Positions 18,358 through 53,609 are shown, numbered from the stretch's first letter. The stretch: DNA of 64,000 bases from Candidatus Moraniibacteriota bacterium (GCA_035390125.1 DAOOTD010000003.1:20122-84121); one strand, 5' to 3'. The notes: generated from the letters alone by a model not told the origin. Numbers and translations: made by a program.

Positions 18358-19503
18358 TTATTCTTCCGTCCAAATACCTGGGCCTACTGGGCCGGAACAT
18401 TTCTTGGTTCCATAGGCGTTAGAAATACATCCATTATCGCAAGTTTTGCCTTTGCAGGTGTTTTTTTCACAACCATTTGAGACACAGCAGGCACCGTCAG
18501 TTTTGACGCCATCCATAAGCTTGCAGCCATTATTGCATTGCTTGCCTTGGCAGGTTCTTTGCTCGCAGTTATCTGCCTGACAGCAGCTCTGGTTGGTATA
18601 GGAACCATTTAAGCTTCCATCCGTGCATTGTCTAGTTTCTTTGACACACTCTGATCCATAAGGTGCATAGCTGTCTTTATAGGCGTCGACTGAACTGCCG
18701 CTAGCTACAGTTGTGCCCCAAGGCGTGGTGCAGGGACAAGGTGCTACGCTGCAGTTTTGGTTGGTGGCTGTTCCGCTCAAGACTCCATTGGTGCAGGTTC
18801 TATTTTGTTTGACACTATCACAGGATGATCCGCAGGCTACTGAACTTGAGGAGTAGGCATCAACTGATTGACCATTATCTATTGTTCCCCCCCAAGGCAG
18901 AGTACAAGTAGGATAAACAGTAGGACCAGTTGAGCTACCACTGAAATTAATCCACCCTAACTCATCTGACCAAGCATACCCACTCAGTTTTCCATCTGAT
19001 GCAACTAATACTCCATATTTAGACCCGTTTTGGGCTGTACCATTTAGTTTTATCCAACCTAGCCATCCTCCTGAATTACCAACTTTATAGGCATCTGCAA
19101 TGCTCACTATCCTTGCCCAGCCTTGCAAAGTGTTATCAGCAACACGTTTTGACACACAATTACCATCAGGACAGCCACTGAGATATCCGCCAGAATTATC
19201 AAAGGCAATATACCCCAAATTTTCGCTCCAGGCATATCCGCTCAAATCACCTCCAGAAGAAGAAGTTGGTATATTTAAGCCATAAGAAACACTACCTCCT
19301 GCCCCTGAATTTATATTATTAGCGCTAATCCAGCCAACACCCGTCTTATTCCCAGCTCCGTCATCGCTTCCTCCCCAAAGCCAACCTGATCCGTTTTCTG
19401 ATGTTCCGGCATTTACTTTTAAAATGCTTGCTACAGCAAAAATCATGCAAAAAACAATTGCTGCTATTCCATATTTGATTAAAAATTTTTTTTGTTTTGA
19501 CAT
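18358..19503 (-). CDS. Secreted repeat protein with ~20-aa aromatic (cell-wall-binding-like) repeats and a Cys-rich C-terminal half
   Basis: Signal peptide MSKQKKFLIKYGIAAIVFCMIFAVASILKVNA. Repeats LSGYAWSENLGYIAFDN / GGWLGWIKLNG / LSGYAWSDELGWINFSG. Two ~45-aa Cys modules (C.LPWGGTI..G.SVDAY......CGS.C.SV.Q.RTCTNG.L.G..TNQ.C) are followed by CQADNCEQRTCQGKQCNNGC... Confidence 0.7.
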   Translation of the reverse strand: MSKQKKFLIKYGIAAIVFCMIFAVASILKVNAGTSENGSGWLWGGSDDGAGNKTGVGWISANNINSGAGGSVSYGLNIPTSSSGGDLSGYAWSENLGYIAFDNSGGYLSGCPDGNCVSKRVADNTLQGWARIVSIADAYKVGNSGGWLGWIKLNGTAQNGSKYGVLVASDGKLSGYAWSDELGWINFSGSSTGPTVYPTCTLPWGGTIDNGQSVDAYSSSSVACGSSCDSVKQNRTCTNGVLSGTATNQNCSVAPCPCTTPWGTTVASGSSVDAYKDSYAPYGSECVKETRQCTDGSLNGSYTNQSCCQADNCEQRTCQGKQCNNGCKLMDGVKTDGACCVSNGCEKNTCKGKTCDNGCISNAYGTKKCSGPVGPGIWTEE

Positions 19504-19584
19504 AAGTTAAAATTAATAAATATTTTAAAAATTAATTTTTAATAAAAAGTATAATCCGGAATATTTAATTTAATTTTTTATTAT

Positions 19585-20532
19585 TTAATAACATCCTCTT
19601 TCAGTAATAGTTGCTGTGCAAGTTGAAGTATCATATGCCGAACATGTATAATCAAACCAATAATTTATGTATCTATAATTATCGACTTTGCATGTTTCCG
19701 CAGAAGCATTACTGAATACATGACTACCAGTAGTGCAAGAAACGGCTGGACATTTTGAAACATTATTAGTTGTTCCATTACAAGTTTTTACAGTAGTAGT
19801 TGAATAATTTTTATATGATGACCATCCACTTGGACAACTGCTTTGAGAAAATTTACAAAAATTCTTATCTCCATCACTCACCAAGATTCCACCTGCACTA
19901 GTACAATCATCAGTAGAATGATATGTTCCATAAAGAAATATTCTCCCTGAATTGTTTGTGCAACGAATATAAGCTGTCACGTCTGTACAACCTATATTCA
20001 TACATTGCCATCCATTTTCTCCAATGGGCCTGCCCCCATAACCAGAAGAGTCACTATCATCGCATACATCTCTTCCCCAGCAACCGCCACCTACCATCGT
20101 ATCACCGCTAAAGCAATATATAGGATCAGTGGTTTTAACTTCTCTAGTATAGAGAGGTCCTATGGTAGTACCCGCGTTTCCACTGATACTCATTTCGCTC
20201 AACCACTTACCAGTACTTCTCAAATAAACATCGTTAACGTCTATGTTTCCGCTAGCGCCTTTATCTGGATTTGGGGTTTGTGTCCCAACTCCCACATTAC
20301 CATGAACAAAAAGACTGTTTAAAACATCTAAAAATGCTCCGCTAACACCCAAGCTTCCTGCCTTGTTTTGGAGAATATCACTTGTATTTATTGGGGCGCC
20401 AACATTGCCATCTGGAGCTGTTGCAGTCGGTTCAGTCCAAGCTTTGGCAAATTGAATGACACAACCAAGAGTTATTCCGATTATAGCTACGCTTACCCAA
20501 TATGAGATACCCTTCGTTGTTTTTAATTTCAT
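19585..20532 (-). CDS. Secreted Gly/Cys-rich protein, paralog of the next gene at its N-terminus
   Basis: Signal peptide ...VIQFAKA|WTEPTATAPDGNVGAPINT is near-identical to the N-terminus of the 20555-22255 product. The C-terminal 180 aa is Cys-rich (about 24 Cys). Confidence 0.7.
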   Translation of the reverse strand: MKLKTTKGISYWVSVAIIGITLGCVIQFAKAWTEPTATAPDGNVGAPINTSDILQNKAGSLGVSGAFLDVLNSLFVHGNVGVGTQTPNPDKGASGNIDVNDVYLRSTGKWLSEMSISGNAGTTIGPLYTREVKTTDPIYCFSGDTMVGGGCWGRDVCDDSDSSGYGGRPIGENGWQCMNIGCTDVTAYIRCTNNSGRIFLYGTYHSTDDCTSAGGILVSDGDKNFCKFSQSSCPSGWSSYKNYSTTTVKTCNGTTNNVSKCPAVSCTTGSHVFSNASAETCKVDNYRYINYWFDYTCSAYDTSTCTATITERGCY

Positions 20533-20554
20533 AATTTATATTTTATTCAAAAAA

Positions 20555-22255
20555 TTACTGTAAAAGTTCTGAATGCCATGTATTATTACTATTTACATAT
20601 TGATAACTACTACAACCTGCTGGTGCTGATGTTTGACAAACTCCGTCTCCTGAAGTCAGATAGAAGTTAGGTATAGCCGTACTTGCTATAACACCATTAA
20701 CGCACTTTACAGCAAATGTTATAGCTCCTTCGACACTACCCTCATTATCCCCAAAACAAGTACATCTCCAACCACTCCAAGCACATGACCCGCCTGCGGA
20801 CTGCCATGAAGCTAATCCACTAGCGTCAGAAGTCAACACCTTACCTGCACCTTGGGTTCCGTCAGTGATTTTAACCTTGCCACTAATGTCCAGTTTAGCA
20901 GTAGGACTGGTTGTACCGATACCGACATTGCCGGCAAAATAACTCTTAGGTCCAGCTCCGTAAAAATCATGACCAGTAGATGTTCCTTTTCCATAAATAC
21001 CTATAATTCCAGTACCAACAACACCATAGTTGCCTCCGTTAGCAACGACGGCATATCCTCCACCAGTAGCATAAACTCCATAATCACTACCCCAAGCATT
21101 AACACCAGTAACACCTTCTCCGCGGATACCGGTTGGTCCATAACCATAAATACCATAAGTACTGCCATTTCCGTATACACCGTATATACCGCCTTGACCA
21201 ACAACGCCAACAGCATCAGAACCAACGTTTCCGTAACCATAAACACCCCTAGAACCCTCGCCTCTAACACCGAGTCCATAAGAAGCACTGTTTTTCCCAT
21301 AGACACCAGCTCCGTTTTGATTGCCAGCAGTGCTATAACCTTCAACGCCATAAGTTCCTGTACCATATATGGCAGCATTACTATCTCCACCGCTTCCCAC
21401 GGAAAGTTTAGATAAAGGACTAGTTGTGCCAACTCCAACATTGCCATTATTATAATAAATCGATGTTCCATTTGTTACCCATTGACTTGAACCGCCACCA
21501 GCTGCTGGCGTTTGCCACGAAGCTAAACCATTGGCATCGGAAGTCAACACCTTGCCTGCACCCTGGGTTCCGTCAGTAATTTTAACCTTGCCGCTAATAT
21601 CCAGTTTAGCAGTAGGACTGGTTGTGCCAACTCCAACATTGCCGGCGCTATTCAATGTCATGTAAGGCGAAGTGTAGGATGGGCCAATATAATAATAATT
21701 TAAGGAATCAGCTGCACCAAAGACCCCAAAACCTCCTCTATTTGTGTTTGAGCTGCCTCTAAAAAAATAACCCATATTCCATCCACCAGTATCACCTTTT
21801 ATACTAATACTTCCAACATTATTGCCAGTAGGACTAAATATTATAGGCCTAGGTCCATTAACCGTTACAATACCATTATTTCCTAAAATCAAGGGTGAAA
21901 TTCCAGTTGTTCTGTCAAAAAAAGAAATATTCCCATCATCCCCTCCGCTAGGATATATTTCCCATTGATGTCCTCCGCTGTAATAGGTCGTATCGGTATT
22001 TCTGAAAACTACGCGGTTTGAACCGCCATAATTACCATCTACAAGCACCGTTCCCTTAACTTGCAATGCACCTGTTACGCCTAAAGATCCATTTTTAACT
22101 TGAGGAGCCGTACCAGTATTTATTGGCGCGCCAACATTACCATTTGGCGCTGTTGCAGTCGGTTCAGTCCAAGCTCTGGCAAACTGAACGGTACAGCCAA
22201 CAATTGTCGCAATTATAGCTATACTTGCCCAGTATGTAATATTTTTTGTTTTCAT
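20555..22255 (-). CDS. Secreted Gly-rich fibre-like protein with phage-tail-fibre-type repeats (NVGIGTTSPTAKLDISGKVKITDGTQGAGKVLTSD..GLASWQ) and a Gly-Tyr-rich central region
   Basis: Signal peptide ...VQFARA|WTEPTATAPNGNVGAPINTG. The 46-aa tail-fibre-like module occurs twice almost identically. A GVYGYGNVG...GIYGYG Gly/Tyr tract lies between the copies. The short C-terminus contains Cys residues. Confidence 0.7.
   Translation of the reverse strand: MKTKNITYWASIAIIATIVGCTVQFARAWTEPTATAPNGNVGAPINTGTAPQVKNGSLGVTGALQVKGTVLVDGNYGGSNRVVFRNTDTTYYSGGHQWEIYPSGGDDGNISFFDRTTGISPLILGNNGIVTVNGPRPIIFSPTGNNVGSISIKGDTGGWNMGYFFRGSSNTNRGGFGVFGAADSLNYYYIGPSYTSPYMTLNSAGNVGVGTTSPTAKLDISGKVKITDGTQGAGKVLTSDANGLASWQTPAAGGGSSQWVTNGTSIYYNNGNVGVGTTSPLSKLSVGSGGDSNAAIYGTGTYGVEGYSTAGNQNGAGVYGKNSASYGLGVRGEGSRGVYGYGNVGSDAVGVVGQGGIYGVYGNGSTYGIYGYGPTGIRGEGVTGVNAWGSDYGVYATGGGYAVVANGGNYGVVGTGIIGIYGKGTSTGHDFYGAGPKSYFAGNVGIGTTSPTAKLDISGKVKITDGTQGAGKVLTSDASGLASWQSAGGSCAWSGWRCTCFGDNEGSVEGAITFAVKCVNGVIASTAIPNFYLTSGDGVCQTSAPAGCSSYQYVNSNNTWHSELLQ
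20800..20940. repeat. Intragenic direct repeat, copy A (~140 bp, ~90% identical to 21510-21650)
   Basis: ...gtcaacaccttacctgcaccttgggttccgtcagtgattttaaccttgccactaatgtccagtttagcagtaggactggttgtaccgataccgacattgccggc... recurs at 21510-21650 with a few substitutions. Confidence 0.8.
21510..21650. repeat. Intragenic direct repeat, copy B
   Basis: See copy A. It encodes the second NVGIGTTSPTAKLDISGKVKITDGTQGAGKVLTSD module. Confidence 0.8.
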
Positions 22256-24216: not shown

Positions 24217-24684
24217 ATGATATTAACTACTCATGCTTTGATCGGAGCTGCCTTGGGTAAAAATATTCCGAATCCATGGATCATAGTTACCATTGTTATT
24301 CCGCTTCATTTTCTAATGGATCATTTTAGACACGGAGAATATATTGAATCACCTCATAAAAAAACGAGTATTAAAAATATTTGGTGGAAAGCTTTATTAG
24401 ATTTCAGTATTGGAATGTTATTCCTTTTTTGTTTTATAAATTATAAAAATTTTGACTATACAGCCATACGCAATATAATTTTAGGAACATTTTTTTCATT
24501 ATTTCCTGATATGCTGACAGTGCTGTACTGGATTCTTCGCTGGCCTTTTCTTAAAAAAATTCACGATTTTCATGTTTGGTGCCACAAGTATCCACCTTTT
24601 TCCAGTGAAAGACAATGGAATTTAAGAAATGCACTTAATGATATTACTTTCTCAGTGTTAGCTTTGTTATTGCTTCTTTTTTAA
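24217..24684 (+). CDS. YdjM-like (DUF457) membrane-bound metal-dependent hydrolase
   Basis: THALIGAAL...DHFRHGEY...SLFPDMLTVLYWILRWPF resembles the H/D metal-ligand and ADMLTP..PLLWP motifs of E. coli YdjM; 155 aa, about 4 TM helices. Confidence 0.5.
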   Translation: MILTTHALIGAALGKNIPNPWIIVTIVIPLHFLMDHFRHGEYIESPHKKTSIKNIWWKALLDFSIGMLFLFCFINYKNFDYTAIRNIILGTFFSLFPDMLTVLYWILRWPFLKKIHDFHVWCHKYPPFSSERQWNLRNALNDITFSVLALLLLLF

Positions 24685-24703
24685 ATTTTATAATTACAAT
24701 CTT

Positions 24704-27499
24704 TTAAAGATATTTTGCCGTCCAGCTTTTCTTATCTTTTTTGAGCTTGTCAGGAGTACCTTCAAATGTAATATACCCCCCAGATTCTCCACCATCAGGA
24801 CCGAGTTCAATAACCCAATCTGCGTCTTTTATCACATCCAGGTTGTGTTCAACCACAATAACTGTATTCCCTTTATCCACTAATGCATTCAAAACTGATA
24901 ATAACTTCTTTATGTCTTCAAAATGAAGCCCGGCAGTAGGTTCATCTAAAATATACAAGGTGTTGCCAGTTGATTTACGTGCTAATTCTGTAGCTAACTT
25001 TATGCGTTGCGCTTCCCCGCCAGAAAGGTTAGTGGCGCTTTGGCCAAGTTTCAAATATCCCAAGCCCACATCTTCCATTGTTTTTAATTTTTCTGAAATT
25101 AAGGGATTGCGAGTAAAAAATTTGAGAGCTAATCTTACATCCATGTCTAAAATCTGCGCAATATTAAATCCTTTGTATTCTATCTCTAGTGTTTTTTTAC
25201 TAAATCTTGTGCCATCGCAAGCTTCACATTTTACATATACATCAGGAAGCAGATGCATTTCGATTTTTTTAAGTCCTTCCCCTTGGCAAACTTCGCAGCG
25301 TCCACCTTTCATATTAAAGCTGAATCGGCTAGCAGTGTACCCTCTATTTTTTGCTTCCTCCGTTTCAGCAAACAAATCACGTATATGTGAAAACACTCCT
25401 GTATATGTAGCCGCATTTGAACGCGGAGTTCTTCCGATAGGAGCTTGATTTATACTGATAACTTTTTTAATATTCTCAAAGCCTTTTATTTTTTTATGTT
25501 TGCCAGGAAGTTCCTTAGTTCCGTAAAAATGGCGGGAAAGAGCTTTGGATAGAATATCTTTCACCAGAGTAGACTTTCCACTACCTGAAACTCCGCAAAT
25601 TGAAACTAATTTCTGAAGTGGGATCTTTATGTCTATTTTTTTAAGATTATGCTCCTCTGCATCTAGAATTTCTATAAATTTTCCACTGCCATTCCGGTAT
25701 TTATTTTTATTGGAAACTTTTTTCTTTTTAGATAGGTACTGAGCTGTAATATTATTAGAATTCAAAAGTTTTTTATAATTACCTTCAAAAACAACGACTC
25801 CGCCTTCTTCTCCTGCTCCAGGTCCCATATCAATAATCCAGTCTGCTGATTTTATTATGCTTTCATCGTGTTCTACAACAATAATTGAATTTCCCACACT
25901 TTGAAGTTTTTTCATGGTATCTATAAGTTTTTCAGTATCACGATTATGAAGTCCTATAGATGGTTCATCTAAAACATACACTATGCCCATCAACTGAGAA
26001 TTGAGTTGTGCTGCTAGTCTTATGCGTTGCGCTTCTCCGCCGGAAATAGTTTGAGCGCTTCTTCCAAGATTCAAGTATTCCAATCCTACATTTTTGAGTG
26101 ATGCGAGCCTACCAATAATTTCACGTATTATAGAACGACTTATCTCTTTTTCTTGGCTGTTTTGATCCCATTTTTCCCAGTTTTTAAAAAATTCATCCAA
26201 ACAATCAATACTCATCAAAACTAAATCATTAATATTTTTTCCTTGAACTTCAACAGCCAAAAATTCTCTTTTCAGTCTTTTGCCACCACAGGCTTCACAT
26301 ACATGTTCGGTCATATATTTTTCAATTTCAGCACGTACATAATCAGATTTTGTTTCAAAATATTTATTTTCAAGCATCGGTATAACTCCACTGAATTCTT
26401 CATCTCCGTAAAGAACTACTCTCAGTTGCTGTTCTGAGAGTTTTTTAACAGGAACATTCATTGAAAATTTATATTTCTTCGAAACATCTTTCAATATCAT
26501 CAGCTGGGAATTCTGTCCGCTAATTTTTCCGCCTGATTTACTCCATGGTTGTATCGCACCTTCCATAAGAGAAAGGTTTTTATTAGGAATAACCAATTCC
26601 TCATTAACTTTTAATATATAACCTAAACCACTGCACACACTGCATGCTCCTTCTGGACTATTGAAAGAAAAGTGTCTGGGGGTTATTTCTTTTATTTTAA
26701 TTCCACAATTGCTGCAGAAAAAATCCTGGTTATAATTGCTTTCTTTAGAATTATCAAAAAGTACTTTCATTGAATTCCCCCCTATTTTCATAGCTGTTTC
26801 TATTGAATCAGCTATTCTTTCAATATCTGGATTCTTTTTATCCAAAACAATCCTGTCGATGACCACTTCTATTTCTGCGTTGTTATATTCATCAATCGAC
26901 ATTAGAGCTTCAGCAACAGGAATAATTTTCTCTTTTATTCTAATTCTTGCATATCCCATTTGCTGAATATGTTTTAAGGCATCTCTGCTGTTCATGCTAT
27001 CTTTTGGTTTCGACAGAATAGCAATTTGGGTATTATGAGAAAATGACAAAATTTCATCTAAAATTTCTTTATTAGAACGTTTTTGCATAGATGTTCCACA
27101 TTGCGGACAATGAGGTATTCCGACTTTGGCAAATAAAATTCTTAGATAATCATAGATTTCTGTAAGAGTTCCGACTGTTGAGCGAGGTGAACGAGAAATG
27201 CTTTTTTGGTCAATAGATATTGGCGGACTCAAATTCTCAATTTTATCTACATCTGGCTTTATTGATGGATCAAGAAAATTCCTGGCATATGAAGAGAGGC
27301 TTTCCATATAACGACGATTGCCTTCGGCGTAGATCGTATCAAAAGCTAAAGAGGACTTTCCTGATCCAGAAAGTCCAGTAATTACAACAAATTTGTCACG
27401 CGGGATATCAACATCTATATTTTTAAGATTATTTACGCGTGCACCCTTGATAATGATGTCGCCTGTATTCTTTCTCGTAGAAGATTTTTTTGAAGACAT
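24704..27499 (-). CDS. uvrA: Excinuclease ABC subunit A (copy 1)
   Basis: [35 protein letters not shown], zinc-finger CPQCG..., a second Walker [12 protein letters not shown], and ABC signatures LSGGEAQR (twice); 931 aa. Confidence 0.95.
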
Positions 27500-27534
27500 A
27501 TTTTATATAAGCATTAAATACTCGCTAATTAAAA

Positions 27535-27565
27535 ATGATACCAGAAAAAACGATAATTGTAAACC
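27535..27565 (-). promoter_or_regulatory. Candidate sigma70-type promoter of uvrA copy 1, with a conserved spacer element shared with the uvrB promoter
   Basis: Gene-strand sequence GGTTTACAATTATCGTTTTTTCTGGTATCAT: -35 TTTACA, 17-nt spacer, -10 TATCAT; about 35 nt upstream of the ATG. It is 26/31 identical to the element upstream of uvrB. Confidence 0.5.
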
Positions 27566-27599
27566 CCTAAACTATTGCACTAGAAAGTCTTTTTTATTT

Positions 27600-28862
27600 T
27601 TAAATTAAAGCATTCTTTTTTCTTATTTTTCTATGAAAATTAATAGCGAAACGATGTGCTTCATCCATTATGCCTTTTATTAAGTTTTTATCATCTAAAA
27701 TTTCTTCGATTTCATTTGAAATTTGAGAATTTAAAATTGATTTATCATTGGAAATTTTTATTTTGACATTTTTTCTCATTGGCCCCTTGGCTACCGCTGC
27801 AATCGATACAGCAAGACCCATTTTTTTATGCAACAGCCTATCAGCCATATTGAGATGCCCAATCCCTCCATCCAGAAGAATAAGGTCAGGCATGGGCCAT
27901 TCATTATTGAATCTCCTAATTAAAATTTCCCGCATCATTTTCACATCATCTATCCCAGCCACAGTTTTTATCCTGAATTTCCTATATTGTGATTTGTCAG
28001 GCTTATTGTTTGAAAAAACAACCATGCTGCCAACTGCATTTGTTCCTGAAATATTTGAGATATCATAAGCTTCGATTCTAAAAATTCTTGGTTCGTGGTT
28101 CGTGGTTCGCGTATTTTCTTCAAAATCTTTTGTGATTAGAGCAATATCGCGGATATGTTGCAAGGCGAAAATTTTATTGCGAAGCTCCGCTGCTTTTTCA
28201 AATTCATGTTTTTTGGCTTCCGTTTGCATTTCTTTTTCTAAGGTATTAATCAATCCTTTCTTTTTGCCAGCCAAGATCATCCTTATATTGCGAATATTAG
28301 CCATATAATCTTTTCCAGAAATAGCGCCTGCATAGGGTCCGGGACAAAGTCCTATCTGGAAGTCTAGACAGCCATTTTCGGATTGTTGTTTATTCAAATG
28401 AAAAGGAAATATATGGCGTATTATTTTAAGCGCAATTTCCATCTGCTTTTTGGAAGTATAAGGGCCGAATGTATATCTGGTAATATTTTTATTTTTACCC
28501 AAATCAGTTTTGCGCAATATGATAACCCTGGGAAATTTTTCTTTCGTAATCACAAAATAAGAAAATGATTTGCCGTCTTTAAGGTCTATATTGTATTTTG
28601 GCTGGTGTTTTTTAATCAGATTGCTTTCCAATATCAAAGCTTCCAAAACTGAGTCTGTTTGTTGGGTTTTTATATCCGCAACCTGCCTGACCATGGAAAG
28701 GATTCTTTCGCCTCTTACGTCCCGTCCCTGGAAATATGATTTGACCCGGCTGCGCAAACTGGTAGCTTTGCCGATATAAAGGATTTTTCCAAATTTATCT
28801 TTAAAGATATACACTCCGGGTTCAGTTGGCAGTTTATTTATTTTTTCTTTAATTTTTGACAT
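27600..28862 (-). CDS. uvrC: Excinuclease ABC subunit C, short form (GIY-YIG + UvrBC-interaction + RNase-H-like endonuclease domains; no C-terminal (HhH)2)
   Basis: GIY-YIG: [29 protein letters not shown]. UvrB-interacting [18 protein letters not shown]-terminal endonuclease domain [21 protein letters not shown]...YRKFRIK...[14 protein letters not shown]. Length 420 aa versus about 600 aa for canonical UvrC. Confidence 0.85.
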
Positions 28863-28972
28863 TTTTCTAAAAATATATAAAATTCAAAATTGTAGTCCTT
28901 TAAAAGTTATGTAGCCAAATAATATTACAATTAAACATATAAAAATACAATGTAAAGGGGAGGAATGTGATT

Positions 28973-29383
28973 ATGTGTATGATGTATGCAGTAACAATGA
29001 AAAAGGAAATTGTATCGTCTAAACCATGTGTTAAAAATGGAAGCTCGAAAGTTATAAATTATCTGTTAGACAAATTTGGGGCGCAAAATCTATTTTTTTG
29101 CCGCCCAGGAGACAAATGCATGTTCGTTTGTCCAAGAGAAAATGTACCCTTTGAGGTGCATGAAACAATTGAGTTTTTTGAAAATTTCGGAGGATTCATG
29201 AAAGGAATTATTGATCCTGGAATTTACAGGATTAGCCTGCATGACCAAAGAGAAACTTCGCATTATCTGATTTTGGAAAAATACGAGAATCAGAAATGGA
29301 AAGAATTTGCCGGACTTTGCGGGGGATGGACTAATGGACTTATGATTGACTGGCGCGGCATTCGTCCGGTTCAAATTAATTAA
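28973..29383 (+). CDS. Hypothetical Cys-containing protein (136 aa), opposite strand to the surrounding NER genes
   Basis: GGAGG RBS 9 nt upstream of ATG 28973 (the track ORF begins at GTG 28967). Product MCMMYAVTMKKEIVSSKPCVKNGSSKV...FFCRPGDKCMFVCPRENVPFEVHE... shows no recognisable family. It is followed by its own hairpin terminator. Confidence 0.5.
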   Translation: MCMMYAVTMKKEIVSSKPCVKNGSSKVINYLLDKFGAQNLFFCRPGDKCMFVCPRENVPFEVHETIEFFENFGGFMKGIIDPGIYRISLHDQRETSHYLILEKYENQKWKEFAGLCGGWTNGLMIDWRGIRPVQIN

Positions 29384-29408
29384 GGGAAATTCTATCACCA
29401 ATTATCCT

Positions 29409-29448
29409 ATAGCGCAGCGCTTATCCAAGCTCTGCGCTATTTTATTTT
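29409..29448 (+). terminator. Rho-independent terminator of the 28973-29383 ORF (possibly bidirectional, since uvrA copy 2 ends 27 nt away)
   Basis: ATAGCGCAG-(14-nt loop)-CTGCGCTAT 9-bp stem, followed by TTTATTTT. Confidence 0.55.
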
Positions 29449-29474
29449 CAAAAAAGCTTCTGATATAAATTACT

Positions 29475-32369
29475 TTATTTTTTCTTCAGCACGTCCTTCA
29501 GATATTTTGCCGTATAGCTTTCTTTATGGTATTTGGCAATTTCTTCCGGCGGACCTGTAACAACAATTCGCCCGCCATTGTCGCCTCCTTCCGGACCCAT
29601 ATCAATGATCCAATCGGCTGTTTTGATGACATCCATATTATGTTCGATTACGACAACGCTGTTTCCCGCATCAACCAAGCGGTTCAAAACATTAAGTAAT
29701 TTTTTTATGTCCTCAAAATGCAACCCGGTTGTCGGCTCATCTAAAATATACAAAGTATCTCCGGTCGCGCGCCGCGAAAGTTCCGCCGCCAGTTTTATCC
29801 TTTGCGCTTCCCCGCCAGAAAGAGTGGTCGCGCTCTGTCCTAGTTCAATATAGCCCAATCCCACTTCCTCCAACACTGCAAGTGGATCGTGTATTTTAGG
29901 GAAAGCTTCAAAAAATTTAACGCCTTCAGAAACTGTCATTTTCAAAACTTCAGCAATATTTTTCCCTTTATATTTAACTTGCAAAGTTTCCCTATTATAT
30001 CTTTTCCCATTGCAAACATCGCAGGGCAAATAGACATCTGGCATAAACTGCATTTCTATTTTCAAAAATCCTTCACCGTTGCAATTATCACATCGCCCGC
30101 CGTGAATGTTGAACGAAAATCTTCCCGGACCATAACCGCGCATTTTGGCATCTTTCGTCTGAGCAAACAGTTCGCGTATCGGCGTAAAAAGTCCCGTATA
30201 TGTCGCCGGATTGGAACGCGGAGTTCTTCCAATTGGCGACTGATCGATCATAATCACTTTGTCTATATTTTCAATGCCAATTATTTCTTTGTGCCTGCCC
30301 GGCGCATCCAATGAGCGGTGCAATTTATTGGCCAATGCCCTATATAATGTTTCTTCAACCAAGGTTGATTTTCCGGATCCTGAAACTCCGGTCACGCAAG
30401 TAAAAACTTTCAGTGGAAATTCCGCCACAATATTTTTTAAATTATGTTCTCCGGCTCCGCGAACTACAATTCTTTTTTTCTTATTTGCATCTCTTCGAAA
30501 TTTTGGAATTTCTATTTCCAGTTCTCCCCGCAAATATTTTCCGGTCAAAGACTTTAGATTATTAATAACTTCCTCAGGCGTTCCTTCGGCCACAATTTCC
30601 CCGCCATGTTTTCCGGCTCCTGGTCCGATATCCACCAGCCAATCAGCCGAGCGCATCATTTCCTCATCGTGTTCAATGACAATCAAAGTATTTCCTATTT
30701 TTTGAAGTTGACGGAGCGTTTCGATGAGTTTCGCGTTATCGCGCGCGTGGAGACCAATTGATGGTTCATCCAAAATATACAAAACCCCGACCAATTGCGA
30801 ACCTATTTGCGAAGCCAGACGAATTCTTTGTGATTCTCCTCCTGACAATGAATAGGCAGCCCGATGCAATGTCAGATAATCCAATCCGACATTATTGAGA
30901 AAAACCAACCGTGCAATAATTTCCTTTAGAATTCTGCCGGCAATCAATTCTTCGCGATGCGTTAATTTTAAATTCTGAAAAAAATTCAAACATTCGCGGA
31001 TACTCATGATTGATGCTTCATATATGTTTTTGTTTCCTACTGTAACAAATAAAACTTCTTTCTTATATCTGGCGCCTTTACAGGTTGAGCATGGTTTCTG
31101 CGACATATATTTTTCAATCCCTTCGCGAACTGCATCGGATTCGGTTTTAAAATAACGATCCTGCAGGAAACCAACTATTCCCCGCCACTGCATATAGAAC
31201 TTCCAGTTAGTGCCGGTTTTGGCGCGAATTGTTATTGGGATTTCTTCCGCTTTTTCCTCAGAAACCATGCTTTCATGATCAGCTGTTCCATAAAGAAGCA
31301 GATCTAGCTTTCTTTTAGGCATGTCGCGCAATCTGGCATTGTCAGGAATATTGAAATATCTGACTACTGACAAAATAACGCCGCCGTAGTAATTATTTTT
31401 TTTGAAATTCCAGGGTGCCAAACCGCCTTCAGCGATTGTCTTATTTGTGTCAGGCATGACTCTTTCAATATCTATCTCTTTTTTAAACCCCAGCCCCTCG
31501 CAAGCTGGACAGGCACCATATGGAGAATTGAACGAGAACAGCCTCGGCTCCATTTCAGGAAATTCTACATCGTGCAAAGGACAAGATAACTTTTGATTAA
31601 AAACAACTTCGTTTTTTGCTTGTTTGCTGTTTTTTGTTTCCTGATTACTGATTTTTACCAATCCTTCGGACATTTTCAGTGCTTTTTCAACACCCTCAAA
31701 TATTCGGCTTAAATTTTCAGCCTTTACTTCGATTCTGTCGACAATAAGATCGATGTTATGTTTCTTGTATCGTTCCAGTTTTATCTCTTTGAAATTTTCC
31801 AGTTTATATAATTTTCCATTAACAATAGCTTCAGAAAAACCTCGTTTCCACATGTCATCAAGCAAGGTTAAATATTCACCTTTTCTTTCGCGCACAATTG
31901 GAGAAATAATTTCGATTAAGCGTGTTTCATTTTTATCGCCCATTTCCAAGATACGATCAACAATTTCATCGGTTGAAATTTTTGAAATTTCCTGTCCGCA
32001 AACAGGGCAATGCGGAATTCCGATTTTAGCATAAAGAAGACGCAGATAGTCATGGATTTCTGTCACCGTTCCGACTGTGGAACGCGGATTATGCGAAGCA
32101 GACTTTTGATCAATTGAAATAGCCGGCGACAGACCTTCAATATAGTCCACGTCCGGTTTATCCATTTGGCCCAAAAACTGGCGAGCATAACTGGAAAGGC
32201 TTTCCAGATATCTCCTCTGCCCCTCGGCAAAAATGGTATCAAAAGCCAGCGTAGATTTTCCTGAACCGGAAATTCCCGTAAATACAATGAATTTATTGCG
32301 TGGGAGCTCTAGATCAATGTTTTTCAAATTATGTTCGCGCGCACCTTTTATTATAATTTTGTCTTCCAT
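29475..32369 (-). CDS. uvrA: Excinuclease ABC subunit A paralog (copy 2), full length
   Basis: [40 protein letters not shown] zinc finger, second Walker [17 protein letters not shown] signatures twice; 964 aa. Its 3' half (29475 to ~30700) reaches 55-65% GC. Confidence 0.9.
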
Positions 32370-32397
32370 AAACTATTATTATTAAACATGGCAAATT

Positions 32398-34356
<1,959 letters not shown>

Positions 34357-34402
34357 ATATCATTTTATTATCCTTGCATACTATATATCTTGCTAAATAT
34401 GA

Positions 34403-34433
34403 ATAATATAAGAAAAAATGATTATTGTAAACC
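34403..34433 (-). promoter_or_regulatory. Candidate sigma70-type promoter of the uvrB-uvrA2 operon, carrying the same conserved element as the uvrA copy 1 promoter
   Basis: Gene-strand GGTTTACAATAATCATTTTTTCTTATATTAT: -35 TTTACA, 17-nt spacer, -10 TATTAT; about 45 nt upstream of the ATG. Confidence 0.5.
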
Positions 34434-34527: not shown

Positions 34528-36504
34528 TTAGGCTCTTTTTCTTCTCATCCGCAACCAATTTACTATAAGAATAAATATTACAACACCCAAGAAAGCGTAC
34601 CACCAAAATTGTCCTGATGATTTTGGTTTTTCTTCTGTTTCGCTAGAAACAGTATTTTTGGACTCAGTTCCCAAAACTTCACCTACATCTTCATTTTTAT
34701 TATTTATTTCTGCCGCCAAAACTTGTTTTGTGTTACTGTTCAGGCTATTTGCATTTTCTCCGATAACAATGTCTTCGGACAATATTTCAGTGCCTTCATC
34801 GTTTATAATAATATCTGACCCCGTTTCTGTTGGAATTTCTATAGAGATAACCTTTGCATCACTATTGTTCCCGACTTCATCCAGACTAACAAATTTATAA
34901 TAATATTTCTCTCCTCTCTTCACGTTTTGATCAGTATAGTTTTCATCATTTTTTTCATTTTTAGCAATCCGCGAGTTATTATCAATTTTAAAATCCTTGC
35001 TCTTCCCTTTGTATATATAAACCATATCTATATCAGAGTCATCAGCATTCCAACTAAGATTTACAAAAACATTTTCACTATCATATTTTGCATCCAAATC
35101 ACTGATTTCATTAGGATCTTCTGCATCCACTTTGATTTCTTTTTCACCTATAAAGCTGTAATTTGAAGCTTTGTCTATACTTCTGTAATAAAGTTTCCAT
35201 GTTCCGTTATCTATAGTAATTGGATCAGTATAATTTAGCCATGTTCCTGAGTTACTATTTAATTGATATTCTATTCCTTCTACATCATAATTATCGCTTG
35301 CAGTCAGAGTTATTTTTGGTTTGCTTTTATACCACCCATTATTACCATCGTTTTCTGCAGGATAAATTGACGCAAATACTTCGGGCTTAGTCATATCATA
35401 AACTATATTAATAGAATAGGAGTTTGATGTGCTGTAATCATTATAAACAGCCTTAGAATAAACCCCATAAATTCCTTCAGGAATTGTTACTGGAATTTTA
35501 TAATTCCAAGCTCCTTTTCCATTAGCATGAACTGCTGTTTCGCCTTCCTGCCAATTTGTCCCATTCCAATAGTTAATTTCTTCTGAACCGAAAGATTTGT
35601 GCGATATTTTTAGTTCAATATATTTAACGCCAGAAGCCTTCTCTATCGCAATGCCAGAAATTGACCCATCCCAAACATTAGTAGCTATTAAGCCTTTATC
35701 ACCAAGATTAAAGGTCGTTATATAATTGCCAATCAAACCTAAACTCATCTTAAATGTATGGCTATGGTCTTCTAACATGGTGTTGCCTGCATTGTCTTTG
35801 GCTTTAGAAACATATATTGAATTGATTCCGTTCTTCAGGTTATCATAAGGACAATCAAAACAAAAAGTTCTGGCATCACTATCGCCACAATTGTCTACAT
35901 CCTGAGTATGTGAAAGCAAAAAAACAGAAGACCTGACAGACACTTCTGGAATATTGTCTATACCTTCATTAAAAGTAATTTTTATGGTCGGTATAGTTGA
36001 ACCCAAATAGGAAAACTGATCATAAGTTTTGCCATCTGAACTGATATTTTTTATTGAAGGCCTAACGGTATCCACATTAAATGTGTGTGTATTATCTTCA
36101 GCCATTTTATTTTCTATATCATCCTGGGCTTCAGAAATATATATAACCTTCTTTTCTTGAGTTGAAGAGGGTACATTATATTTAAAACAAAAAGTCTTGC
36201 TATCACCATCATCACAATCATTAACATTTTGTGCGAATATGGGACTGTAAATGTAAGCCGGAGATGGTATTGGAGATATTGGAAGAAAAAGAGAAGGTGA
36301 TGATATTACTGATATTCTCGGTTTATTAATTATATCTTCATCAAAATCAACTCTGACAACTGGGTCATCTGAATCCAAATTATAAGTTTCACCATCTGAA
36401 CTGACGTTTACAACTGAAGGCCCAGATACAGCTTCGGCTGCTTTAAAAAAAATGAAAATTCCAAAAACAATAACCACAAATAAGATTGCTTTTTTATTTT
36501 TCAT
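34528..36504 (-). CDS. Cell-surface protein with signal peptide, Ig-like/beta-sandwich domains, a C-terminal CHB_HEX_C-like + FN3-like module, and a C-terminal TM anchor with basic tail
   Basis: Signal peptide MKNKKAILFVVIVFGIFIFFKAAEA|V. Residues ~370-560 align with the C-terminal module of the 2211-aa protein (WY.SKP..TL.A.D....IEYQ..S.SGTW..Y..P..ID.G...YYR..D.A.N.S.IGEK.IKVD..DP.E..DL.A.Y...ADDSDI..VYIY.G...DFK). The C-terminus is KPKSSGQFWWYAFLGVVIFILIVNWLRMRRKRA. Confidence 0.7.
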   Translation of the reverse strand: MKNKKAILFVVIVFGIFIFFKAAEAVSGPSVVNVSSDGETYNLDSDDPVVRVDFDEDIINKPRISVISSPSLFLPISPIPSPAYIYSPIFAQNVNDCDDGDSKTFCFKYNVPSSTQEKKVIYISEAQDDIENKMAEDNTHTFNVDTVRPSIKNISSDGKTYDQFSYLGSTIPTIKITFNEGIDNIPEVSVRSSVFLLSHTQDVDNCGDSDARTFCFDCPYDNLKNGINSIYVSKAKDNAGNTMLEDHSHTFKMSLGLIGNYITTFNLGDKGLIATNVWDGSISGIAIEKASGVKYIELKISHKSFGSEEINYWNGTNWQEGETAVHANGKGAWNYKIPVTIPEGIYGVYSKAVYNDYSTSNSYSINIVYDMTKPEVFASIYPAENDGNNGWYKSKPKITLTASDNYDVEGIEYQLNSNSGTWLNYTDPITIDNGTWKLYYRSIDKASNYSFIGEKEIKVDAEDPNEISDLDAKYDSENVFVNLSWNADDSDIDMVYIYKGKSKDFKIDNNSRIAKNEKNDENYTDQNVKRGEKYYYKFVSLDEVGNNSDAKVISIEIPTETGSDIIINDEGTEILSEDIVIGENANSLNSNTKQVLAAEINNKNEDVGEVLGTESKNTVSSETEEKPKSSGQFWWYAFLGVVIFILIVNWLRMRRKRA

Positions 36505-36622
36505 ATTATTTATATAGTCTGATCCCGCATTAAATGATTTTTTATGCAGAATTTAACAATTTTATTCTTCCTATATTATATCACAGAAAACACAAAAAAT
36601 ACATCCGGCTAAAACTGGCTCT

Positions 36623-36660
36623 TGCAAAACAAAAAAGTTGAGGTTTCAGAACCTCAACTT
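36623..36660 (-). terminator. Rho-independent terminator of the giant surface-protein gene
   Basis: Perfect 11-bp stem AAGTTGAGGTT-tcag-AACCTCAACTT, followed on the minus strand by TTTTTTGTTTTG. Confidence 0.7.
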
Positions 36661-36692
36661 TTCATAATCCTTGTTACAAGAAAATCTTATTC

Positions 36693-39600
36693 TTATTCAT
36701 CCTTTCTTTTTAATATCAGCCACAAAACTCCTCCAACTAATACGGCTACTCCTAGCGTAAACCATAGATACCACCAGTTTTGCGATGAAGATGCGGGTTT
36801 TGTTTCTGCAATACTTTTCTTTTTTTGCTGAGATTCTGATCCTAGAGGTTGACCACCTTGATCACTTCCGCTCGGCGTCGTGATTTCATTATTATCTCCA
36901 ATAGGTTCCCTCTCGACTACCGCATCAGCTGGCAATGCTTCTGTGCCTTCATAGACTACAGTGGCTTGCCCACCTGCTTTTGGAATTTCAATAGAAATCT
37001 TCTCTACTTCGCTTTTGTTGCCAGCATCATCCAGCGCAACGAGTTTATAATAATATTTTACCCCTCTTTCAATATCATAATCGGTAAAATCTTCGTCACT
37101 ATGGTCGTTTTTAGCAACACGCGAAGAGCTGTTAACTTTGAAATCGCTAGTCGTGCCTCGGTATATATAAACATCTTTTATATCCGAGTCATCAGCATCC
37201 CATTCTAATTTTACCCCATTGGTATCTTCCTTGTATGTCGCCTGCAAATCTTCAACTTCATCAGGATCATGCGTATCCACTTTTATATGCTTTTCCCCTA
37301 TTGGGCTAACATTACCCGCCAAGTCCAGTGCCCTATAGTAAAACATATATTCACCATCATCAATCTCTACAGGAGATGGATAGGTTGTCCATGTTCCTGA
37401 AGTTGAATCAATCTGATATTCTATCCTGTCTAAGTTCAAATCAACTGCACTCAATGTCACATCTGGTTTGGAAACATACCAGTGATTGTCTCCATCTGGA
37501 TGGCTAGGATCAATTTCAAGAGTAACTACTGGAGGAGTTGTGTCCCAAATAAGAGTGAACTCATCATAAGCTGAATTACCCACATTGTCAGTCACTGTAA
37601 GTCTAGCCACATATGTTCCGTCAGTATCAGCAGATATGTCAGTATCTTCAGCATTTGGAGATACAAAAGTTATAGTTCCGGGACCTGAAGTTTGTGTCCA
37701 AGAGTAAGTTGCTATTCCACTGCCATCATCAGAAGCTGTGGCATCTTGAGTAAATAAGGCGTTAACAACTTTGTCCGTCCCGGCATCTACGCTTGGAGGA
37801 TTTCCATCCACTATCCTGGTTATGTGATTCATTCCTCCACCACCCCAATGTTCTACGCTGTCGCGTCCGCGCATCGCAAAATCATATGATACACCATCAC
37901 TTAGAAGTCCGCTGAGGTCTGCGATGCAGTTTGATCCATCCCAAGTAGCACTAGACCAACTTGCTGGCCATGCATCTCCAGTTACTCTAAATCTGTATTC
38001 ACAAGCAACGATTGGTGAAACTGAATCTGAAATTGTTCCAGTAAGTGTTGGATTTGCGTTGGTATATGTGCCATCATCCGGACTTATTGTTATTGAATCA
38101 GTAGTTGGATTTGCAGAATCGACTGTGTAAGTTGCTGGTGTTCCTGTTCCTTGATTGCCAACCATGTCATTGACTCTTACGTTTACCGTGTATACTGTTC
38201 CATCCGCAATAGTTGGACTGATGTCTGCTATGCAACGTCCAGTTCCTGAATTGTAAGATCCAGAATACCAATTGGCTCCATCATCCAGGGTGTATTCACA
38301 AGTGGTGATGTCCAATCCGGAAGCTGCATCTGAAACGTCGGCAATAATACGAAATGTGTCATCACCTCTTACATATGGAGTATAGTTTGTCCATGGAGAA
38401 GTTCTTACTATTCGAACATTGCTTACTATTGGTGCAGCTGCATCCACTGTTCTAGTTATATTATTTTCCCCGCCTCCGCCATTATGACCTAATGTGTCCG
38501 TTGCGCGGGTTGAAAAATCATACGAAACTCCGTCAGAAAGACCACTAATACTTCCTGTGCATGTTCCAGTTCTTGGATCGCCTGACGGTGTCCATGTTCC
38601 ACTCATCCAAGTTGTCCATCCTCCGCTTCCGGAACCAGTCACCCTGTATCTGTATTCACAACTGGTGATTGGTGAAACTGTATCACTAAGCGTACCGGTT
38701 ATTGTCGGATCAGCACTGGTATAAATACCATCAGGATCAGGACTAATCGCTATTGAGTCAGTATGTGGTCCTTCGGAATCAACTGTATATACAACAGCGC
38801 TTCCTTCTCCTATATTGCCAACAAGATCAGAGACTCTAATGTTTATTGTAAAAACATCGCCATCCGTAAGGGTTGCTGGGATACTAGCTATGCAACGTCC
38901 AGTTCCGACATTGTAAGATCCGGCATACCAGTTAGCTCCGTTATCCAGTGTGTATTCGCAAGTGGTAGTATCTAATCCTGAAGCTGCATCTGAAACGTCG
39001 GCACGGATACGGGTTGTTACGTTTCCATTGATATATGGATAGAAATCGGTTCCACTGCTTTGAACCACAGCTTGAACATTGGTTACGCTTGGCGCAACTG
39101 TATCTTTAGTGAAAGTCCTGGAATCAGTGCCTATATTTCCAGCTGCATCAGTATCACGAACATTCAAAGTAAAGCTTGTTTCGCCAAGTCCGGCAAAATC
39201 TGAAAGCATAGAAAATGTATCACCAGATGCGCATGATTCCCATGCTCCACCATCTATATTACATTCTTGGGTACCAGGTTCTGAACTTGAGAATGTAAAA
39301 ACTGATGTTCCACTGGCATAAGCTGAAACAGCAGGAGTTAAAATTGTTACGGTAGAAGGCACTACGTCTTTAGCGGCTGTATCAAGTCTAGGAGTAGCTG
39401 TGTTTCCAGCTACATCTGAAACTGAACATACAACACCTATTGCTCCATCATTCAAACCTAATAAGGAACCTGAAGAGATGGTTGCAGTATTGCCAGATAT
39501 TAGCCCTGACACAGGAATATATGTAAAAGTATCGCTTATTAAACATGCAACTGATTGGCCGTCTTCTACGCCGGTTGTAACTACGTCTATATCAACTCCC

Positions 39601-52798: not shown

Positions 52799-53467
52799 CT
52801 ATAGACTAACAAATTTTACAGGTAAAATCTTATGAAAAATTCCAGCTATAAAAATTACATCCGCTTGTGAAAGATAAATTGGGTGATGGGCGTCATTAGT
52901 GGAGTTAGGAAACAAGCCAATCACACCTTTGCCCATATTTTTATAACGTTTGATAGTGGCCATACCATTGATTACCGCCACTACTATTTTATCTTCAAAC
53001 TCATTTTGCGCTTCAGTTTTTTCAAAAATCACATAATCTCCATCACTGATTCCGTCTTTATTCATTGAATCTCCCAGAGCTTTGACAGCGAATAATTTTT
53101 CAGGTTGTTTTTTGTGAAAAAGATTTTTAGAAATTTGTAAAAAATCATCTGCCACACCGTCATCGGCATAGGCCAGTGCTTCCCCGCAAGATGCTAGCCC
53201 ATAAAGAGGAATAGAAAAAATATTCTGCGCATCTCCATAATTCTCATTTTCTACCAGATAAATTTTTTTATTTTCATCACGAGTAATTAATTCTTTTTTC
53301 TCCAAAGATTCGATAACTTGCATGACAGATTTCATGCTTTCATTCATACCTTTAGAAAGCAGATGTTTATGCAGGCGATAGCTGGTTGGTTTTTCTCCAT
53401 TTTGCATTGTAAGTTCACGGATATATTCAAGGATATTTTTTTGTTTAGCTGTGAGTTTTTGTTCCAT
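52799..53467 (-). CDS. lexA: LexA-like SOS repressor (wHTH + S24 peptidase)
   Basis: MEQKLTAKQKNILEYIRELT aligns with the E. coli LexA N-terminus (MKALTARQQEVFDLI). It has a candidate Ala-Gly-type cleavage region ASCGEA and the Ser/Lys dyad KALGDSM ... TIKRY. The track ORF extends to GTG 53518, which has an AGGAGG 7 nt upstream, so the start is ambiguous. Confidence 0.8.
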   Translation of the reverse strand: MEQKLTAKQKNILEYIRELTMQNGEKPTSYRLHKHLLSKGMNESMKSVMQVIESLEKKELITRDENKKIYLVENENYGDAQNIFSIPLYGLASCGEALAYADDGVADDFLQISKNLFHKKQPEKLFAVKALGDSMNKDGISDGDYVIFEKTEAQNEFEDKIVVAVINGMATIKRYKNMGKGVIGLFPNSTNDAHHPIYLSQADVIFIAGIFHKILPVKFVSL

Positions 53468-53488
53468 ATTTTTATTTAAATTATTTAT

Positions 53489-53505
53489 AGTGTTATTATA
53501 ACACT
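53489..53505. promoter_or_regulatory. Perfect 17-bp palindrome AGTGTTAT-T-ATAACACT overlapping the -10 box of the lexA promoter (candidate LexA operator / SOS box)
   Basis: Gene-strand: TTGCAG (53518-53523)-17 nt-TATAAT (53495-53500); the TATAAT sits at the centre of the palindrome. Confidence 0.45.
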
Positions 53506-53609
53506 GTATTAATATCACTGCAATACCCTCCTGTGGATAACTCTTGCCTTTGATTTATTCAAAAGTGCTTGTCTTATAAAAAATTATTTTTTTAAGAGAA
53601 ATACTCTTT

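Follow-up and report, generated by a model that had tools for sequence, protein, structure and literature searches.

Why does a single nucleotide-excision-repair (NER) locus carry two full-length uvrA genes, and is one of them foreign? The question is raised by a stretch of 64,000 nucleotides from Candidatus Moraniibacteriota bacterium (GCA_035390125.1, DAOOTD010000003.1:20122-84121; hereafter the window), in which uvrB, uvrC and two uvrA genes lie together between positions 24,217 and 34,433. We refer to the copy adjoining uvrC as uvrA1 (copy 1, protein A1) and to that adjoining uvrB as uvrA2 (copy 2, protein A2). An earlier note, made from the sequence alone, had described both as class-I genes and the second as compositionally foreign. 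Genomes of bacteria of the candidate phyla radiation (CPR, or Patescibacteria) are about 1 Mb in size and have lost many pathways. Our analysis indicates that this is probably a native locus of Moranbacteria (Patescibacteria/CPR) with two ancient and conserved class-I UvrAs.

Strong purifying selection acts on both UvrAs, which are intact class-I proteins. They share 48% identity over their full length, and each contains the UvrB-interaction domain PF17760 (residues 142-247 in A1, E 2.9e-18; 132-243 in A2) and the insertion/DNA-binding domain PF17755 (300-394 and 300-420, respectively). Their scores to the UvrA equivalog NF001503 (1273.8 bits for A1 and 1471.9 bits for A2; cutoff 1147) and that of A1 to TIGR00630 (1224.1 bits; cutoff 729.8) exceed the model cutoffs. 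Both align in a single full-length alignment with the class-I UvrA of Geobacillus (2r6f; 1033 bits for A1, 1200 bits for A2 over residues 3-963, its best match in PDB) and score far lower to the class-II structures 2vf7 and 7sh1 (627 and 445 bits in the case of A1). The Walker A lysines, signature, Walker B and H-loops are all present in A1 and at least 95% conserved in 119 members of its family. The A1 and A2 families alike conserve these motif sets together with every zinc-module cysteine, the cysteine pairs of A1 being invariant. Among residues with experimental support (PMC3025350; E. coli UvrA numbering throughout), the UvrB/Mfd-contact residues R216 and E222 and the equivalents of K37, K646 and R712 are 100% conserved in both families (119 members for A1), and the remaining DNA-binding positions are Arg or Lys in most members of both. 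An AlphaFold2 model of A1 (pLDDT 84.5, pTM 0.76), in which the UvrB-binding domain is folded confidently (pLDDT 72-89), superposes best on the class-I structures 2r6f and 3uwx (TM 0.82-0.85, with 0.85 for the UvrA chain of the UvrA-UvrB complex 3uwx), against only 0.72 and 0.62 for class II. Compared with the ortholog in the closest relative (L001), the ratio of non-synonymous to synonymous divergence (dN/dS) of A2 is 0.05, and A1 has a dN of 0.074 with saturated dS.

Domain, equivalog, motif and structure evidence thus agree with the earlier description of two class-I genes, each with two ABC modules and zinc fingers. Both copies match the canonical class-I architecture of E. coli and Geobacillus stearothermophilus UvrA (2R6F/3UWX), i.e., two ABC ATPase modules, three zinc modules, the UvrB-binding domain with R216/E222, the insertion domain and the DNA-binding arginines. 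The departures of A1 are a shorter insertion domain (family median 100 versus 111 aa) and Asn or Lys at G502. Model organisms have one class-I copy, whereas here there are two, conserved across an order-level CPR lineage. The arrangement resembles that of class-II paralogs (Deinococcus radiodurans UvrA2, 2VF7; DrrC; Ecm16, 7SH1) in that a second UvrA-family gene accompanies the canonical uvrA. In class-II proteins, however, the UvrB-binding domain is missing, and in class IIa the first zinc finger as well (PMC9328131); both are retained in the two window copies, so that neither belongs to class II. Two class-I copies are, as that note had remarked, unusual with respect to the literature, in which additional UvrAs are class-II proteins devoid of the UvrB-binding domain (PMC9328131).

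Other bacteria with two UvrA units offer partial parallels. Porphyromonas gingivalis has two uvrA paralogs with 42% 'homology', one of them in a uvrA-PG1037-pcrA operon (PMC3747172). As in the window, the two genes are diverged and lie in different operon contexts, and a division of labour has been proposed (PMC3747172); the phylum is different, and the partner is pcrA instead of uvrC. A fused double UvrA is known in Planctomycetes (PMC8567305). Fused proteins of this kind (about 1,800 aa, NCBIfam NF001885 type) also provide two UvrA units per genome, but as a single polypeptide, whereas the window genes are separate with uvrC between them. Among the A1 matches listed in our representative library (P0241-P0389), 92 are double-length fused UvrAs of at least 1,700 aa, some exceeding 2,300 aa; judging by these matches, fused architectures are common in metagenomes. 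We considered them as covalent analogues of an A1-A2 pair and discarded the idea, since their halves are not specifically related to either paralog. In the literature that we searched, there is no prior description of twin class-I UvrAs from Moranbacteria or CPR.

The two window proteins belong to two separate ortholog families, both present throughout Moranbacteria. Databases already contain the exact sequences of A2 and A1 under the name 'excinuclease ABC subunit UvrA [Candidatus Moranbacteria bacterium]' (A1 as HOW60843.1/HRZ33966.1). Among the best 120 matches of each (73-92% identity for A2, 66-88% for A1), every named member comes from a metagenome-assembled genome of Moranbacteria or Patescibacteria, and at least 14 contigs are apparently common to both lists. 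In a scan of GTDB species genomes, A1-type orthologs (59-82%) were present only in Moranbacteria; the other A1 matches, from other Patescibacteria, Chloroflexota, Actinomycetota and other phyla, are at most 54% identical and no closer than A2. The nearest relatives of both copies therefore fall in one lineage, an outcome that the earlier note had itself named as speaking against a foreign copy 2, and it does count against it.

Gene order is equally shared. The closest relative L001 has uvrB, uvrA2, a small opposite-strand open reading frame (ORF), a short uvrC, uvrA1 and a TP-methylase gene in this succession, and the order uvrA2-uvrC-uvrA1 is found in at least seven assemblies besides the window (L001, L006, L009, L010, L011, L014 and L087). 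L006, L009, L010, L011 and L014 include the most divergent A1 orthologs (61-66%) and still keep it, as does L087, in which the A2-type and A1-type proteins are 65% and 52% identical to the window copies. The modules are apart on one contig of 921,850 bp, each being intact (uvrB near uvrA2; uvrC-uvrA1-TP-methylase), and six further contigs encoding an identical A2 have mostly the same neighbouring genes. The tight spacing of uvrB and uvrA2 is not conserved: 243 nt separate them in L001 and three small genes in L003. Because the uvrA2-uvrC-uvrA1 order is shared with divergent relatives and the modules are intact elsewhere, the NER island was not consolidated recently but is ancestral to the lineage, with a gene order predating the radiation of the group.

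The uvrC gene of this island is itself peculiar. Its product matches PF01541, PF02151 and PF08459 and scores 352 bits to the UvrC equivalog TIGR00194 (cutoff 285). No HhH domain was matched in Pfam at E <= 0.01, and the protein ends 13 residues past the RNase-H domain. All 8 members of the two-UvrA clade that we examined (including L005, L006, L009, L010, L011, L014 and L087) have such a UvrC of 413-449 aa without (HhH)2 and with a linker of only about 20 residues between UVR and RNase-H, and A1 always adjoins a UvrC of this type. The UvrCs encoded beside uvrA in other lineages, including Saccharibacteria, measure 546-706 aa and have a C-terminal IPG(I/V)G HhH motif. The short form is distinct from Cho, in that it retains the RNase-H 5'-endonuclease domain; its score to the Cho model NF007833 is 70 bits, the cutoff being 367. 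It also resembles an engineered D. radiodurans UvrC without (HhH)2, which likewise keeps the GIY-YIG, UVR and RNase-H domains and in which 3' incision is kept and 5' incision partly impaired (PMC10085695). Since that construct retains 3' incision, the short-form UvrC is plausibly active. The difference is that (HhH)2 was lost naturally here and that this loss is fixed throughout the two-UvrA clade. The locus is a lineage-wide variant of UvrABC, with two sensors of class I and a UvrC devoid of HhH.

How the lineage came to have two class-I copies was addressed with neighbour-joining (NJ) trees only, built from 97 sequences (200 bootstraps) and from 163 sequences (100 bootstraps), the latter set adding both L087 copies and a dense sampling of Paceibacterota UvrAs. 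A1 and A2 form separate monophyletic clades in the first (192/200 and 200/200) and in the second (100/100 each), and they were never exclusive sisters (0/200 and 0/100). The split between A1 and A2 is thus ancient, and both a duplication within the lineage with acceleration of A1 and an ancient acquisition of A2 are compatible with the trees. The outgroup in these trees was a second, highly divergent UvrA-like gene of Actinokineospora iranica (L082 ~2031), located about 8 kb from the canonical uvrA and probably a class-II paralog.

An ancient acquisition, which we hold to be possible but tentative, would make A1 the vertically inherited, Paceibacterota-type UvrA and A2, perhaps together with uvrB, a gene of non-Patescibacteria origin that was obtained, and subsequently fixed, in the ancestor shared by Moranbacteria and the L087 lineage. 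In the 163-sequence tree, A1 together with P0363 is sister to a group of 30 Paceibacterota UvrAs under two distance corrections, and A2 never pairs with the Paceibacterota family alone (0/100). The A1 clade and those Paceibacterota sequences, which have Ser or Tyr at this position, are the only ones without Gly at G502, and A2 is 53-57% identical to UvrAs of Actinomycetota, Chloroflexota and others, compared with 44-47% to L027, P0377 and P0363. The bootstrap value of the A1-Paceibacterota grouping, however, is only 46/100, and A1 and the Paceibacterota sequences are all long branches that long-branch attraction could group; no donor clade of A2 is identifiable, its sister being unstable, and the trees are NJ, not maximum likelihood. 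If either copy is a xenolog, the NJ trees weakly favour A2, at a depth that would be invisible to present-day GC content.

The other origin, to which we give a similarly limited credence, is an ancient local duplication of uvrA around uvrC in the ancestor of the clade, after which the fast evolution of A1 would have erased the sister signal. The copies flank uvrC within about 5 kb even in the most divergent members, and A1 evolves faster (at about 1.4 times the rate of A2; mean distance to outgroups 0.81 versus 0.69 for A2), A2 being the slower paralog, close to the bacterial consensus. The same asymmetry shows in L087, whose A1-type protein (52%) has diverged more from the window copy than its A2-type protein (65%). 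Distances among three taxa agree with a star tree in which the branch of A1 is long. The absence of any bootstrap replicate uniting the two copies speaks against duplication, as does their identity, which is no higher than that of A1 to UvrAs of other phyla (47-54%). Shared-derived residues, tried as a rate-independent sign of sisterhood, gave 3 columns, the same as an unrelated clade pair, and were discarded as noise.

Whatever the origin of the pair, the features that set A1 apart lie in domains connected with damage recognition and hand-off. The divergence between A1 and A2 is concentrated in the UvrB-binding domain (27% identity) and in the insertion domain (32%), which is about 11 residues shorter than usual in A1 (96 aa in the window, the E. 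coli domain having 111). The position equivalent to G502 is Gly in all A2 sequences and in 72/75 other bacteria. In the A1 subfamily of the window it is Asn, Lys or His (Asn 87%, Lys 13%), with Asn in the window protein. The E. coli G502D mutation has been reported to disrupt damage recognition (PMC3025350). Mutations of G502 or of the insertion domain in E. coli impair global repair more than Mfd-dependent transcription-coupled repair. Because of the Gly to Asn change, normal damage discrimination by A1 is uncertain. These differences motivate, without establishing, a specialised role for A1.

We propose that both UvrAs would act as damage sensors passing DNA to the single neighbouring UvrB, A2 being the presumed general sensor and A1 a putative second sensor that has subfunctionalised and differs in its lesion range or loading route. 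A1 may share its expression with uvrB by way of a common promoter element and seems to be evolutionarily tied to the UvrC that lost its (HhH)2 DNA-binding domain. It is rather unlikely, in our estimate, that the A1 clade represents a functionally distinct class-I UvrA forming a dedicated module with the HhH-less UvrC; in one form of this proposal, A1 would have weakened damage discrimination owing to the G502 change and the short insertion domain and would be loaded by a partner or serve as one half of an asymmetric A1-A2 heterodimer. If this proposal is true, Moranbacteria run a two-sensor NER system that is not described in model bacteria. That two class-I uvrA genes of 2.8 kb each are retained across the lineage, both strongly constrained by purifying selection, implies that the second sensor does something that the first cannot. 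A1 varies naturally at the insertion domain and G502, elements tied to damage discrimination by mutational work, and keeps the UvrB interface; together with the (HhH)2-less UvrC, it offers a comparative system for UvrA specificity and for the partitioning of the hand-off from UvrA to UvrB and UvrC.

A role of A1 independent of UvrB, of class-II type (e.g., protection against DNA-binding toxins or drugs) and outside NER, is highly improbable. Second UvrA copies that have been studied are often of that kind (PMC9328131), and the UvrB-binding and insertion domains are precisely the most diverged parts of A1. The former is nevertheless confidently folded, with R216 and E222 invariant throughout the family, A1 fits class-I structures far better in both sequence and TM scores, and its gene lies with uvrC and not in a biosynthetic cluster.

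The idea of shared expression comes from two near-identical elements of about 42 nt (GGTTTACAATWATCRTTTTTTCT plus TAYNAT and TTAGC) that precede uvrB and uvrA1. A 23-mer pattern of this element, searched in the 64 kb with up to 3 mismatches, occurs only 5' of uvrB and at 27543-27565, with 0 occurrences expected. The core of the element is conserved 5' of the A1 orthologs of L001, L006, L009 and L014, similar -35/-10 pairs occur 5' of A1 in L011, L012, L015 and L087, and a related element lies 5' of uvrB in L001. In the window and the relatives compared, it never precedes uvrA2 or uvrC, the latter having a different promoter-like site. This distribution suggests that uvrB-uvrA2 and uvrA1 are two transcription units with a common control, and the element may be a shared operator or promoter for NER genes. 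A LexA-type palindromic operator common to the upstream regions of uvrB, uvrC, uvrA1, recA, the lexA-like gene, ssb and recO was also considered. The palindrome search of these regions retrieved only the trivial AT-rich TAATT (recA and recO regions), and nothing linking the NER promoters.

The proposal that copy 2 is compositionally foreign came from GC values of 55-65% given for its 3' half, against about 45% in the homologous half of copy 1 and about 33% genome-wide. Those values derived from windows judged by eye and ought not to be carried forward. Measured in 60-nt windows, the 3' half of copy 2 averages 43.1% GC (3/20 windows reach at least 55%, the maximum being 58%), the homologous half of copy 1 has 36.5%, and the window overall 35.6%; the real GC of copy 2 is 40-43%. 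What did hold in the codon-usage analysis is a modest excess of GC at third codon positions (GC3). GC3 is higher in uvrA2 (0.377) and uvrB (0.372) than anywhere else in the window, about 3 standard deviations (SD) above the 36 other ORFs (0.262 +/- 0.039), and the excess spans the whole uvrB-uvrA2 block and not only the 3' half of copy 2. We rejected the possibility that this is an intrinsic trait of uvrA2, e.g., a codon bias linked to expression: in seven other genomes with both paralogs the GC3 z-score of A2 is inconsistent, ranging from -0.7 to +1.5 (backgrounds of at least 7 ORFs), and rpoB, rpoC, recA and efp of the window have ordinary GC3.

Comparison with L001 locates the difference elsewhere. 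From uvrB through uvrA2 and the small ORF into the 5' part of uvrC, the two genomes have equal GC; across uvrA1, GC is 5-7 points lower in the window, so that the AT-shifted parts relative to L001 are copy 1 and the rest of the window, not copy 2. In L001 the GC3 of A1 is even higher than that of A2 (0.395 versus 0.367), and members of the two-UvrA clade span about 33% to 47% GC. The excess is thus an old compositional heterogeneity within the clade and not evidence of foreign origin. Most likely, a Moranbacteria relative of slightly higher GC either was the source of an old allelic replacement or has drifted towards AT faster than this block.

There is therefore very little room for a recent acquisition or gene conversion of copy 2, possibly with uvrB, from a foreign donor of higher GC. 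Such an event would account for the highest GC3 values of the window, in an excess specific to this genome, and for the synonymous divergence of uvrA2 from L001, which is the lowest among long genes. But dS between the two A2 genes is about 1.0 and nucleotide identity to L001 is at most 88% in every 400-nt segment, from which it follows that copy 2 is not a recent import. Together with the GC equal to that of the L001 orthologs, the Moranbacteria affiliation of all nearest relatives and the conserved synteny, these values led us to reject recent horizontal transfer and leave, at most, an old allelic replacement within the clade. An assembly or binning artefact joining the uvrA genes of two organisms on one contig, which could explain the compositional step between the uvrB-uvrA2 block and uvrA1, is practically negligible given that at least seven other assemblies, of diverse samples and sources (ENA, JGI, NCBI), show this arrangement and that the contigs with identical A2 have mostly the same neighbours.

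Several points weigh against a native locus with two ancient class-I sensors. A1 and A2 are never NJ sisters, so that one copy could be an ancient xenolog. The GC3 excess of about 3 SD is real in this genome, and no donor of an intra-clade recombination was identified. Not every member of the A1 clade has the G502 substitution, Gly being kept in 4/14 A1 orthologs of the GTDB sample. Finally, the subfunctionalisation of A1, its hand-off to UvrB and the co-regulation are inferred from sequence.

The features of the locus are listed in Table 1. It consists of two minus-strand modules, uvrB-uvrA2 and uvrC-uvrA1, parted by one small opposite-strand gene. Coordinates and lengths given in the earlier note were exact for all six ORFs; Pfam and NCBIfam confirm the four NER genes, which are clustered on one strand as it had stated, and the short gap between uvrB and uvrA2 is consistent with the co-transcription that it had proposed. 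UvrB scores 1008.7 bits to the equivalog NF003673 (cutoff 743) and possesses the helicase core, the UvrA-interaction domain 2, the UvrB-specific domain and the C-terminal UVR motif; it is 91% identical to its L001 ortholog, with a dN/dS of 0.04.

Table 1. Features of the NER locus (positions in the window; strand in brackets)
Feature	Length	Position (strand)	Remarks
Predicted membrane protein	155 aa	24217-24684 (+)	Between uvrA1 and the TP-methylase gene
uvrA1 (copy 1, A1)	931 aa	24704-27499 (-)	Class-I UvrA, adjoins short uvrC
Promoter-like element 5' of uvrA1		27524-27565 (-)	GGTTTACAATTATCGTTTTTTCT..TATCAT..ATTAGC
uvrC, short form	420 aa	27600-28862 (-)	GIY-YIG 15-91, UVR 203-236, RNase-H 258-407
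Small Cys-rich ORF	138 aa from GTG	28967-29383 (+)	Between the uvrB-uvrA2 and uvrC-uvrA1 modules
uvrA2 (copy 2, A2)	964 aa	29475-32369 (-)	Class-I UvrA, adjoins uvrB
uvrB-uvrA2 spacer	28 nt	32370-32397 (-)	No terminator-like site
uvrB, full-length	652 aa	32398-34356 (-)	Pfam ResIII, UvrB_inter, Helicase_C, UvrB, UVR
Promoter-like element 5' of uvrB		34392-34433 (-)	GGTTTACAATAATCATTTTTTCT..TATTAT..TTTAGC

The small Cys-rich ORF is a conserved gene. It is called as a gene in the source annotation (with 133 aa instead of 138 aa), and L001 has it at the same position with 75% amino acid identity and a dN/dS of 0.16. Its product has no Pfam or NCBIfam match, and L006 and L087 have unrelated small ORFs at this position. 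The 155-aa ORF beyond uvrA1 had been called YdjM-like, an assignment that we abandoned, all scores being below threshold: there is no Pfam match even at E <= 5, hhalign gives 2.8% probability against E. coli YdjM, BLASTP aligns a single 33-residue motif (E 0.003), and its orthologs score 15.5-16.2 bits to PF04307 (cutoff 29). A tblastn search against plasmids gave no match. The ORF is a conserved neighbour of the locus, shared by L006, L007, L008 and L014 but missing from L001 and L005.

Scanning the window for Rfam families and tRNAs gave no match. The interval from uvrB to the S6-SSB-EFP cluster holds genes for a 658-aa protein with an OmpL47-type/Ig-like domain (34528-36504, minus strand) and for a giant PKD/Big_13 protein of 2,211 aa (36693-43328, minus strand; 43% GC, second-position GC 0.51). 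Since L001 has three small unrelated genes there, these surface-protein genes (34528-43328) represent a lineage-specific insertion. On the other side of the locus, three consecutive minus-strand ORFs of 381, 315 and 566 aa (18358-22255) have no Pfam match and probably encode low-complexity or secreted proteins; their high second-position GC (0.52-0.55) explains a GC bump of 42-43% at 20-22 kb. Further along the window, an S24-peptidase (LexA-like) gene (52799-53518, minus strand) is located near ftsK, a RodZ-like gene, recA, ssb and recO, which makes the window a neighbourhood rich in DNA metabolism genes.

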